3,285 bases of DNA. Origin: a phage. The notes beneath the pieces are model-generated. The model did no database searches and was not told the DNA's origin. It saw only the letters and a program-made list of their open reading frames with translations. The DNA is taken from the sequence record PZ195126.1; one strand, written 5' to 3'. The translations under genes and the position numbers were made by a program. Within the stretch, counting starts at the first letter, position 1, and each line of letters begins with the position of its first letter. This document shows, piece after piece, positions 51-3,285 of the stretch.

Positions 51-1223
51 ATGTTTCCGAAGTCAAATATCGACAGAAATTACAAGGTTAAACTTATTTC
101 TTACGATAAGAAAGGGAATCTTGTTTCCGACGACTCTTTTGAGCAAGTCGAAAACTATCTCTTTCAAAATCGTTCGAATACGTATAAACCCGGTTATCTC
201 CGTCGCGACTTTCGAAGACCTACTAACTTTTGGAACGGCTATCGCTGTTTCAATCAGCCAGTTGGTACTTTCACTCGGAAACTCTCTGATGGTGGGAGAC
301 AAGTAGCTGATTATGGTATTGTGAACCCTAATAAGTTCACTGCCAATAGTCAGCACTTGGGGGACAACATGGTAATTTACCCTGGTCCCTTCTCTATAAA
401 TATTGATCAGCGTGCTTCTGTTGAAGTCCTCAATAAACTTTCACAATCCAACCTCAATATTGGGGTTGCGATTGCTGAAGCTAAGATGACTGCTTCATTA
501 CTCGCTAAACAATCTATAGCTCTCATCAGAGCCTACACTGCCGCAAGGCGCGGAAATTGGCGAGAGGTGTTTTCACAACTCCTCATCTCCGAACACCGTT
601 TCAGAGCTCCCGCTAGGGATCTCGGAGGTCGATGGCTCGAACTGCAGTACGGCTGGTTACCCCTTATGAGCGATTTGAAAGCCGCATATGATTTGCTTAC
701 GCAAACCAAATTGCCCGCTTTCATGCCCTTGAGGGTTACCCGTACCGTTGGCGGAACGCATAATTACAAAGTGCGTAACGTCGAATCTGCAGGGGATACT
801 TGGTCCTATAGCGATCGTTTGTCGGTGAATTACCGAATATGGTATTTCATTTCCGATCCACGTCTCGCATGGGCTAGTTCCCTCGGGCTTCTTAACCCTT
901 TAGAAATCTTTTGGGAGAAGACGCCCTGGTCGTTCGTTGTTGACTGGTTCTTACCTGTCGGTAATCTTATAGAAGCCATGAGTAATCCTCTTGGCCTCGA
1001 TATTATTTCCGGCACGAAGACCTGGCAACTCGAATCAAAACTTAATGCGACGCTTCCGGCTTCGGGTTGGTTTGGAACTGCAAAGTTATCTGCATATGCG
1101 AAAGCATATGACAGATCTACTTTCTATTCCTTCCCTACTCCTTTGCCGTATGTGAAGTCTCCACTTAGTGGTCTTCATTTAGCGAATGCATTAGCCTTAA
1201 TCAACCAACGCCTGAAAAGGTAA
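51..1223 (+). CDS. mat: Maturation (A/assembly) protein, 390 aa
   Basis: 390-aa ORF with TAA stop at 1221-1223. The translation contains blocks I recognise from the MS2 A protein (e.g. [62 protein letters not shown]...ALALI.QRL). First gene in the canonical levivirus order, with SD upstream. Confidence 0.95.
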
Positions 1224-1239: not shown

Positions 1240-1632
1240 ATGGCAACTTTACGCAGTTTCGTACTCGTCGATAATGGCGGTACGGGGAATGTTACTGTCG
1301 TTCCTGTTAGCAATGCCAACGGCGTCGCTGAGTGGCTTTCTAATAACTCGCGCAGTCAAGCTTATCGCGTGACTGCCAGTTATCGTGCGTCAGGCGCGGA
1401 CAAGCGCAAATACACCATCAAACTCGAAGTGCCGAAAATCGTCACTCAAGTTGTAAATGGTGTTGAGCTGCCTGTCTCCGCATGGAAGGCTTATGCCTCT
1501 ATCGACCTGACCATCCCTATCTTTGCTGCAACCGACGATGTGACCGTTATTTCCAAGTCACTTGCCGGCCTGTTCAAAGTTGGGAACCCTATTGCCGATG
1601 CCATCTCCTCTCAGAGTGGCTTCTACGCGTAA
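1240..1632 (+). CDS. cp: Coat (capsid) protein, 130 aa including initiator Met
   Basis: ORF MATLRSFVLVDNGGTGNVTVVPVSNANGVAEWLSNNSRSQAYRV...GNPIADAISSQSGFYA is near-identical, from memory, to the phage GA coat protein and clearly homologous to MS2 coat (FVLVDNGGTG, ANGVAEW, SRSQAY, LTIPIFA, GNPI). TAA stop at 1630-1632. Confidence 0.97.
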   Translation: MATLRSFVLVDNGGTGNVTVVPVSNANGVAEWLSNNSRSQAYRVTASYRASGADKRKYTIKLEVPKIVTQVVNGVELPVSAWKAYASIDLTIPIFAATDDVTVISKSLAGLFKVGNPIADAISSQSGFYA

Positions 1633-1823
1633 TGGGTCTGAAAGCAAAACATAAGGAAAACCTATGTTCCGGTTCACAGAGATCGAAAAGACTCTATGTA
1701 TGGATCGCACTCGCGATTGTGCTGTCCGATTTCACGTCTATCTTCAGTCATTGGATTTGGGGTCTTCTGATCCTCATTCTCCGGACTTTGATGGACTTGC
1801 CTACCTTCGTGATGAATGTTTAA
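1632..1823 (+). CDS. L: Lysis protein (L), 63 aa, overlapping the coat stop and the replicase 5' end in a third reading frame
   Basis: ATG at 1632-1634 shares its A with the coat TAA stop (UAAUG). Product MGLKAKHKENLCSGSQRSKRLYVWIALAIVLSDFTSIFSHWIWGLLILILRTLMDLPTFVMNV has a basic N-terminus and a hydrophobic C-terminal segment containing an LS dipeptide, as in MS2-type L proteins. Position between coat and replicase matches the levivirus layout; 63 aa matches the GA lysis protein size as I recall it. Confidence 0.8.
   Translation: MGLKAKHKENLCSGSQRSKRLYVWIALAIVLSDFTSIFSHWIWGLLILILRTLMDLPTFVMNV
1648..1668 (+). promoter_or_regulatory. Coat-protein translational operator hairpin enclosing the replicase start codon
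   Basis: 5'-AACAUA-A-GG-AAAA-CC-UAUGUU-3': a 6-bp lower stem, one bulged A (1654), two G-C pairs, and a 4-nt loop AAAA (1657-1660). The replicase AUG (1664-1666) sits in the 3' arm. Architecture matches the MS2 operator ACAUGAGGAUUACCCAUGU (bulged purine, 2-bp upper stem, tetraloop). Confidence 0.8.
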
Positions 1824-3262
1824 CCAAACATCCTTCACTTGGAGACAGTAATTCGGACGCACGCCGTAAGGAATTGGCATATGCCAAACTTATGGATAGT
1901 GATCAAAGATGCAAAATCCAAAACAGTAACGGATACGACCACTCCCATATCGAGAGTGGCGTACTGAACGGTATACTCAAGACCGCTCAGGCCCTTGTGG
2001 CAAACTTACTTACGGGTTTTGAATCTCACTTCCTGAACGATTGTTCATTCTCCAATGGAGCCTCACAAGGGTTCAAGTTGCGGGATGCAGCGCCGTTTAA
2101 GAAGATCGCTGGGCAAGCAACCGTTACAGCTCCTGCTTATGACATTGCCGTGGCCGCCGTTAAAACGTGCGCGCCGTGGTATGCTTATATGCAGGAAACG
2201 TATGGCGACGAGACCAAATGGTTTCGTCGGGTGTACGGCAACGGTTTGTTTTCTGTTCCGAAGAACAACAAAATAGATCGGGCTGCCTGTAAGGAGCCTG
2301 ATATGAATATGTACCTTCAGAAAGGGGCGGGATCTTTTATAAGAAAACGCCTTCGTTCCGTCGGTATAGATCTTAACGATCAAACGTGCAATCAGGAATT
2401 AGCCCGACTTGGCAGCATCGATGGTTCACTCGCTACTATTGATCTTAGTAGTGCTAGTGATTCCATTTCTGACCGTCTCGTCTGGGATTTACTTCCACCG
2501 CACGTTTATTCATACCTCGCTCGTATCCGTTCGTCGTTCACTATGATCGACGGGCGTTTACATAAGTGGGGTCTATTTTCTACCATGGGTAACGGCTTTA
2601 CGTTCGAACTCGAGTCCATGATCTTTTGGGCTCTTAGCAAGAGTGTAATGCTGTCCATGGGTGTTACTGGCTCATTAGGCATCTACGGTGACGATATAAT
2701 CGTTCCTGTTGAATGTGCCCCGACCCTCCTTAAGGTATTATCCGCTGTGAACTTTCTTCCTAATCAGAAGAAAACATTCACAACAGGTTACTTTCGCGAG
2801 AGTTGCGGTGCTCATTTCTTTAAAGGTGCCGACATGAAACCTTTTTACTGCAAGCGGCCAATGGAAACCCTTCCCGATGTCATGTTGCTATGCAACAGGA
2901 TAAGAGGTTGGCAGACCGTTGGTGGAATGTCAGATCCGCGGCTCTTCCCGATTTGGAAGGAGTTTGCTGATATGATTCCGCCGAAGTTTAAGGGTGGATG
3001 TAACCTGGATCGCGACACTTACCTCGTTTCACCAGATAAACCTGGTGTCACATTGGTTCGTATTGCTAAGGTACGCTCTGGTTTTAACCACGCGTTCCCG
3101 TACGGTCATGAAAATGGCCGTTACGTCCATTGGTTACATATGGGATCGGGAGAAGTTCTCGAGACCATATCCTCCGCCAGGTTTAGGTGCAAACCTAACT
3201 CGGAATGGAGAACACAGATCCCTCTATTTCCTCAGGAATTAGAGGCCTGCGTTCTCTCCTGA
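1664..3262 (+). CDS. rep: RNA-dependent RNA polymerase (replicase beta subunit), 532 aa
   Basis: 532-aa ORF with TGA stop at 3260-3262. Contains the palm motif YGDDIIV (GDD at 2687-2695), an upstream acidic motif IDLSSASDS (D at 2441-2443) and an SxMGNGFTFELES motif (around 2579-2617). Size and position match levivirus replicases. Confidence 0.97.
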   Translation: MFRFTEIEKTLCMDRTRDCAVRFHVYLQSLDLGSSDPHSPDFDGLAYLRDECLTKHPSLGDSNSDARRKELAYAKLMDSDQRCKIQNSNGYDHSHIESGVLNGILKTAQALVANLLTGFESHFLNDCSFSNGASQGFKLRDAAPFKKIAGQATVTAPAYDIAVAAVKTCAPWYAYMQETYGDETKWFRRVYGNGLFSVPKNNKIDRAACKEPDMNMYLQKGAGSFIRKRLRSVGIDLNDQTCNQELARLGSIDGSLATIDLSSASDSISDRLVWDLLPPHVYSYLARIRSSFTMIDGRLHKWGLFSTMGNGFTFELESMIFWALSKSVMLSMGVTGSLGIYGDDIIVPVECAPTLLKVLSAVNFLPNQKKTFTTGYFRESCGAHFFKGADMKPFYCKRPMETLPDVMLLCNRIRGWQTVGGMSDPRLFPIWKEFADMIPPKFKGGCNLDRDTYLVSPDKPGVTLVRIAKVRSGFNHAFPYGHENGRYVHWLHMGSGEVLETISSARFRCKPNSEWRTQIPLFPQELEACVLS

Positions 3263-3285
3263 TNNNNNNNNGANNNCNCCNGACG
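3263..3285 (+). other. Start of the 3' untranslated region, mostly ambiguous bases (N)
   Basis: Sequence after the replicase stop is ctgatNNNNNNNNgaNNNcNccNgacg; the genuine 3' UTR (usually over 100 nt and ending in CCA in this family) is not present. Confidence 0.6.

Follow-up and report, generated by a model that had tools for sequence, protein, structure and literature searches.

The window, by which we mean the whole 3,285-nt stretch that was analyzed, contains four open reading frames (ORFs) in the order typical of the F-specific single-stranded RNA (ssRNA) coliphages (leviviruses), namely, those encoding the maturation, coat, and lysis proteins and the replicase β subunit (Table 1). The coat stop codon and the lysis start codon overlap in the sequence UAAUG (1630 to 1634), and the lysis gene product is identical to the GA lysis protein at 59 of 63 residues. 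The replicase is 99.1% identical to that of BZ13 DL20. Megablast returned full-length matches to Emesvirus japonicum genomes BZ13 DL20 (95.8%), GA (94.7%), and DL10 (94.2%), those with DL20 and GA extending over 3,262 nt, and full-length matches at ~85.5% to T72 and KU1; the match to MS2-group genomes was limited to ~400 nt of the replicase gene. Judged by these sequence comparisons, the window represents almost the entire genome of a GA-like (BZ13-type) group II F-specific ssRNA coliphage. The record is incomplete at both ends: it starts ~85 nt into the genome, and it carries runs of N at positions 3264 to 3285, just after the replicase stop codon, and lacks the 3′ untranslated region. No record of the phage collection was more than 96% identical to the window, indicating that it represents a distinct group II isolate. 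The site described below is of value mainly for correct annotation, assigning the window to the group II leviviruses of the GA/BZ13 type.

Table 1. Genes and RNA elements of the window discussed in the text
Feature	Coordinates	Strand	Basis
Maturation protein gene	51-1223		ORF; Pfam Phage_mat-A
Coat protein gene, 130 codons; putative trans-acting repressor	1240-1632	+	ORF; Pfam Levi_coat PF01819
GCUUUC, coat codons 32 to 34; 5′ arm of predicted long-range helix	1335-1340	+	Global MFE; invariant run 1255-1349
Lysis gene, 63 aa	1632-1823	+	ORF; Pfam Phage_MS2_lysis PF11125
GAAAGC, 2 nt 5′ of the hairpin; 3′ arm of predicted long-range helix	1640-1645	+	Global MFE; invariant run 1640-1671
Operator hairpin: 6-bp lower stem, one unpaired A, 2-bp upper stem, AAAA loop	1648-1668	+	MFE and centroid; GA feature match; covariation
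Unpaired purine, A1654 (−10) or A1653 (−11)	1653-1654	+	Isoenergetic registers
Shine-Dalgarno sequence AAGGA of the replicase gene, in 5′ arm and loop, 6 nt before AUG	1653-1657	+	Read from sequence
Tetraloop AAAA, −7 to −4 relative to the A of AUG	1657-1660	+	Sequence and fold; AUUA in MS2
Replicase start codon, in 3′ arm, paired with C1650-A1651-U1652	1664-1666	+	ORF and fold
Replicase β-subunit gene, 532 aa; regulated gene	1664-3262	+	ORF; Pfam RNA_replicase_B PF03431, 730 bits

Positions 1648 to 1668 read AACATAAGGAAAACCTATGTT, also given as AACAUAAGGAAAACCUAUGUU, and are parsed as AACAUA-A-GG-AAAA-CC-UAUGUU. The lower stem consists of the pairs A1648-U1668, A1649-U1667, C1650-G1666, A1651-U1665, U1652-A1664, and A1653-U1663, and the upper stem of G1655-C1662 and G1656-C1661, with A1654 unpaired between the two and A1657 to A1660 forming the loop. 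This loop has the length of 4 nt, the A at −4, and the purine at −7 that are characteristic of GA-type sites. Also as in such sites, the hairpin contains both the replicase start codon, the ATG at 1664 to 1666 being codon 1 of the 532-aa replicase ORF, and the ribosome-binding site. Complementarity of the Shine-Dalgarno sequence to the 3′ end of 16S rRNA is established. The initial annotation, which had placed a hairpin of this geometry here, with an AAAA loop and the AUG in the 3′ arm, was borne out by the sequence and by the fold. The hairpin lies inside lysis codons 6 to 13 (K-H-K-E-N-L-C) and replicase codons 1 and 2; being read in two frames and also having a structural role, the same stretch is put to triple use.

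Folding of the isolated 21-mer gave the same structure, ((((((.((....)))))))), as the minimum free energy (MFE) and the centroid fold (−4.2 kcal/mol; z = −2.43), with 5 of 200 shuffled sequences being as good. The hairpin was kept in the MFE structures of 36-, 81-, and 141-nt contexts, the first of these being the folding check that had been proposed initially, and in that of the whole 3,262-nt RNA. Probabilities of the inner pairs were 0.94 to 0.99 in the full-length fold and 0.90 to 0.98 upon local folding, and the z score was ~−1.1 in context versus −2.4 for the hairpin alone. One unpaired purine interrupts the 5′ side of the stem in the MFE and in all near-optimal folds, as in GA-type sites. 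The registers in which A1654 or A1653 is unpaired are both at −4.2 kcal/mol, and U1663 pairs with A1653 and A1654 with probabilities of 0.51 and 0.48, respectively. This ambiguity arises because the pair below the bulge is A-U instead of G-C. Thus, the bulged A located two pairs below the loop in the initial annotation stands as one register (−10) but not as a unique position, since the −11 register is isoenergetic.

A scan of the window for the full geometry (6-bp lower stem, unpaired purine, 2-bp upper stem, and R-N-N-A loop) yielded a single match, the operator. By chance, this geometry is expected 0.067 times per strand, and 6% of dinucleotide-shuffled sequences contain one copy anywhere; the chance of its falling in register on the replicase AUG would be ~1e-5. 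Relaxing the geometry, as a search for further operator-like sites that might act as packaging signals, revealed no enrichment in the plus strand (7 matches versus 4.7 expected).

Two other hairpins were considered. The complement of any hairpin also folds, and that of the operator does so at −5.1 kcal/mol; this minus-strand structure was rejected since it has a U-rich loop and no unpaired purine and hence does not fit the rules of coat protein binding. Minus-strand ORFs across the site (50 and 68 aa) are short and unsupported. At positions 41 to 59, the bulged hairpin CGGAG-G-AU-CUAU-GU-UUCCG has a similar outline and holds the Shine-Dalgarno sequence (GGAGG) and the AUG (position 51) of the maturation gene. 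It does not fit the coat-binding rules because its loop lacks a terminal A, and it may mask the maturation ribosome-binding site.

The GA record X03869 carries a misc_feature at 1733 to 1753 described as "pot. stem loop structure; pot. binding site coat protein." Since the replicase gene starts at 1749 in GA and at 1664 in the window, this feature corresponds exactly to positions 1648 to 1668. The window shares the sequence AAACATAAGGAAAACCTATGTTCCG, as well as the 25 nt around the hairpin, with GA, DL10, DL20, T72, and KU1; AAACATAAGGAAAACCTATGTTCCG also recurs unchanged in five metagenomic or IMG/VR group II fragments (L008, L010, L012, L017, and L107). Thus, the window combines a site identical to that of GA with a group II genome encoding the cognate coat protein. 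In comparison to GA, the hairpin shows no difference and sits at the same place on the replicase AUG, between the same neighbor genes, whereas the whole genome is ~5% diverged. The comparison with published operators that had been suggested for this site hence gave identity to GA and a difference in the loop from MS2. Among six full group II genomes, in which 78% of the columns are invariant overall, positions 1640 to 1671 form the sixth-longest invariant run. The hairpin is the already described and already known GA-type replicase operator, unchanged in this isolate, and an isolate with the canonical site unchanged brings no new information on specificity. Its initial assignment to the coat protein binding sites is supported, at the level of sequence, by the coordinate match to the annotated GA feature, by conserved pairing (see below), and by the upstream coat gene. 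The difference closest to the hairpin is found 4 nt beyond the 3′ end of the stem, at G1672, where GA, DL10, DL20, T72, and KU1 have an A; this change is synonymous in the replicase (Arg3, CGG/CGA) and places Gly instead of Asp at lysis residue 14.

The best Rfam match in the window was RF02359 (Bacteriophage MS2 operator hairpin) at 1647 to 1667, covering model positions 16 to 36 only (E = 0.48), with a score of 18.1 bits that does not reach the gathering threshold of 40 bits. In controls, the GA prototype scored 18.1 bits, KU1 23 bits, and MS2 and fr 61 bits. The model is built on group I and includes 15 upstream nucleotides specific for that group. Because of this specificity and because the GA prototype fails equally, the subthreshold score says little about function; membership in RF02359 was rejected as a functional test, since the GA prototype has the same score of 18.1 bits. 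Natural loop variants were also sought with ACATAAGGNNNNCCTATGT in viral and metagenome contigs. At least 184 matches were obtained, almost all of them due to chance and located in large DNA-phage or bacterial contigs. Among the matches listed, only levivirus-like fragments resembled the window (the five mentioned above, L010 appearing as L010/L094), and all had the AAAA loop; among these matches, the search carried no information on loop tolerance.

We then compared the replicase starts of MS2, an fr-like phage, C-1, PRR1, M, Hgal1, and uncultured relatives. In every case, the AUG falls within the 3′ arm of a hairpin whose 5′ arm carries an unpaired purine, although stems and loops differ. 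The operator is ACAUG-A-GG-AUUA-CC-CAUGU in MS2 and fr, CCAUA-A-GG-GGUA-CC-UAUGG in C-1, and CAUG-A-GU-AUAA-AC-CAUG in an uncultured clade (L011, L013, and L014); PRR1 and M have 5-nt loops, and Hgal1 and Qβ-like contigs have 3-nt loops (UAA). Thus, C-1, PRR1, M, Hgal1, and the Qβ-like phages share with the window the AUG-holding hairpin with an unpaired 5′-arm purine (see also PMC3561173) but differ from it by loops of 3 or 5 nt (PRR1, M, Hgal1, and Qβ-like phages) or by the loop GGUA (C-1) and by an upper stem of 2 to 4 bp. In the uncultured clade (L011 positions 1280 to 1304 and its counterparts), which has 48 to 49% replicase identity, the loop-closing pair is U-A rather than G-C and the loop is AUAA.

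Since MAFFT placed the gap at the 5′ end rather than in the loop when the 5-nt-loop operators of PRR1 and M were included, the covariation count was limited to the operators of equal length (MS2, fr, C-1, and clade L011 versus group II). In this small cross-genus sample of six distinct sequences, 91.7% of the cells were paired, and pairing dropped to 21 to 48% when the 3′ partner was slid by one to three columns. Two-sided changes were found in four of the eight pairs (A-U/G-C at −11:−1, G-C/U-A at −8:−3, A-U/C-G at −15:+4, and A-U/U-A at −16:+5); the AUG itself accounts for the three pairs that do not vary. Two to four of 500 column shuffles reached the observed covariation values. These sequence comparisons indicate that the pairing has been maintained in evolution across genera, the hairpin being invariant within group II.

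That invariance, together with the location of the hairpin in lysis codons 6 to 13 and replicase codons 1 and 2 and the fixation of three of the eight pairs by the AUG, could suggest that the hairpin is incidental, i.e., that its sequence is conserved on account of two reading frames, the Shine-Dalgarno sequence, and the AUG, with pairing as a by-product. Indeed, the double-frame reading of the stretch by itself favors conservation. We consider this explanation extremely improbable, since two-sided compensatory changes affect half of the pairs across genera and pairing collapses when the partner is slid, ruling out a by-product of coding constraints. Furthermore, the hairpin persists in MS2, C-1, and PRR1, where the lysis frame overlaps differently, and in M, where this frame lies elsewhere, and its geometry is not expected by chance (0.067 occurrences per strand).

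The coat protein of the window is identical at 128 of 129 residues to the crystallized GA capsid protein (PDB 1GAV). Its identity to the MS2 coat protein amounts to 61%. At the RNA-contact positions of the MS2 complexes, with the numbering verified, nine residues are kept (V29, T45, S47, R49, K57, T59, K61, E63, and Y85) and four are changed (K43R, N55K, N87S, and E89D). According to work by Gott, Wilhelm, and Uhlenbeck in 1991, the GA coat protein reportedly requires base pairing in the stem together with an unpaired purine, a loop of 4 nt, an A at −4, and a purine at −7, and it is said to be indifferent to two positions of the bulge and to have no strong preference for a pyrimidine at −5. 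The hairpin of the window agrees with every one of these rules.

Hairpins of this class at the replicase start bind the coat protein and act as translational operators (PMC3561173). The GA coat protein binds its own version of the hairpin (PMC3561173, citing Gott et al. 1991), and critical roles are played in MS2, GA, and PRR1 by the unpaired purine and by the A lying 4 nt before the AUG (PMC3561173). In an in vivo repression assay, the GA-wt site was functional with the GA coat protein (GCP) and showed cross talk with that of MS2 (MCP) (bioRxiv 10.1101/168625). In MS2, repression by the coat dimer at the TR hairpin is combined with translational coupling via the Min Jou interaction, which pairs 1427 to 1433 with 1738 to 1744 (PMC11339067). 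By analogy with GA and MS2, we infer that the hairpin of the window is bound, and replicase translation repressed, by the coat protein of the isolate itself. The GA hairpin and the GA coat protein also form an RNA tether for synthetic biology that partly cross-reacts with the MS2 pair.

The hairpin of the MS2/R17/fr phages (group I, Emesvirus zinderi; TR hairpin, RF02359) resembles that of the window in having a lower stem, an unpaired A, a 2-bp GG/CC upper stem, a 4-nt loop whose first and last bases (−7 and −4) are A, a 3′ arm that includes the AUG, and a long-range helix with the coat gene just upstream. It differs by the loop, which is AUUA as the initial annotation stated, versus AAAA in the window (U versus A at −6 and −5), by a G-C instead of an A-U pair below the bulge, and by a lower stem one pair shorter. 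At coat residue 87, MS2 has Asn and the window Ser. As established by binding studies, the R17/MS2 operator in the strict sense requires a pyrimidine at −5. The window departs from this rule, A1659 occupying the position of the MS2 U. The strict R17/MS2 operator also has its unpaired A fixed at −10, two pairs below the loop; in the window, the −10 and −11 registers are isoenergetic. Position 87 is the coat residue tied to recognition of the −5 base. The A at −5 goes with Ser87, and this pair of differences is linked to the relaxed −5 specificity of the GA coat protein, by comparison with the characterized phages. The loop difference had been considered relevant to coat-operator specificity, which is apt given the A at −5 and Ser87 in the window versus U and Asn87 in MS2. 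Structures have been solved for the complexes of the N87S and N87A MS2 coat proteins and for an MS2 complex with adenine at −5 (PDB list in PMC10610835).

Together, the identity with the GA site, the conserved pairing, and the near identity of the coat protein lead us to read the hairpin as the replicase translational operator of a group II (GA-type) coliphage, with a probability of roughly 0.93, the part concerning repression by the coat dimer being drawn from GA and MS2. As in these phages, the accumulating coat protein would bind the hairpin as a dimer. The A at −4 in the loop and the unpaired A at −10 or −11 would each enter one of the dimer's two equivalent adenine pockets, and the base at −5 would stack on Tyr85. 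The dimer would thereby cover the ribosome-binding site, block 30S initiation, and stop replicase synthesis. The same complex of coat protein and hairpin probably also marks the genome for capsid assembly. The site would thus be the place where the coat protein switches off synthesis of the replicase, and it probably nucleates packaging.

The two roles raise the question of which prevails. The hairpin might be mainly a packaging or assembly initiation signal that recruits the first coat dimer, with repression as a side effect. A role in specific encapsidation has been suggested for this class of hairpin (PMC3561173), in virions of MS2 and Qβ, the operator and stem-loops resembling it are in contact with the capsid (PMC10610835), and the window has a single site of strict geometry, as would be anticipated for a unique nucleation site. 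We regard a primarily packaging function as unlikely, since the hairpin of every relative examined contains the replicase Shine-Dalgarno sequence and AUG despite changes in loop and stem, an arrangement that a pure packaging signal does not need, and since repression is the experimentally established function in MS2 (PMC11339067). Packaging and repression are, moreover, not exclusive.

A different possibility is that the hairpin itself masks the ribosome-binding site, together with the long-range helix formed with the coat gene, coat protein binding contributing little. Both the Shine-Dalgarno sequence and the AUG are within the stem, and the predicted helix, which pairs 1335 to 1340 with 1640 to 1645 with a probability of 0.98 to 0.99 (fold of 1225 to 1720, 496 nt), abuts the hairpin. 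We find such self-masking very improbable, since −4.2 kcal/mol would be too weak to block initiation alone, the loop and the bulge carry the bases for binding of the GA coat protein (A at −4, purine at −7, and unpaired purine), and the cognate coat protein keeps its RNA-contact residues. The sequestration of the AUG proposed by the initial annotation is correct insofar as the AUG is paired in the stem, but the free hairpin is only marginally stable. Because of this weakness, the bound coat dimer rather than the fold itself is expected to block initiation, and repression would come from that dimer, as in the work on MS2 (PMC11339067). The operator hairpin would therefore be better described as presenting the ribosome-binding site to the coat dimer, which then blocks it.

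In the operator reading, the site is probably held closed by the 6-bp helix with the coat gene as long as ribosomes have not translated that gene, as for the MS2 analog of the helix. The folding procedure that predicted it also recovered the Min Jou helix of MS2 (probability, 0.74 to 0.99) and the equivalent in KU1. Both arms of the helix are invariant in group II, with no covariation within the group. It occupies the same place as the Min Jou helix but has a different sequence on both sides, and this model identifies it as probably the group II counterpart of the MS2 coupling element. The 5′ arm is included in the longest invariant stretch among the six group II genomes, which spans 95 nt of the 5′ part of the coat gene (1255 to 1349) and suggests RNA structure constraints beyond coding. 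We attach very little likelihood to the idea that the choice between A1653 and A1654 is a selected group II feature, i.e., that it offers two registers to the coat dimer and, together with this group-II-specific helix, tunes the kinetics of repression or assembly in a manner unlike that of MS2. The tolerance of the GA coat protein for both bulge positions is said to have been published already, by Gott et al. in 1991.

Two minor features of the region and one of the coat gene deserve mention. In KU1 and T72, the annotated lysis gene starts 18 nt after the coat stop codon, and 3 additional nucleotides (AUU or UUU) lie between GAAAGC and the hairpin; the window belongs to the GA type and lacks such insertions. 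A stable hairpin at ~1597 to 1623, just before the coat stop codon and the lysis start (−10.3 kcal/mol; z = −2.5), matches a feature of the GA record described as [quoted passage not shown] Finally, the coat codons of GA record X03869, which dates from 1986, specify Ala59 and Gly79, versus Thr59 and Val79 in the window, DL20, T72, KU1, and the crystallized GA protein. Position 59 is an RNA-contact position in MS2, and the residues of X03869 may reflect strain variation or an old sequencing difference.
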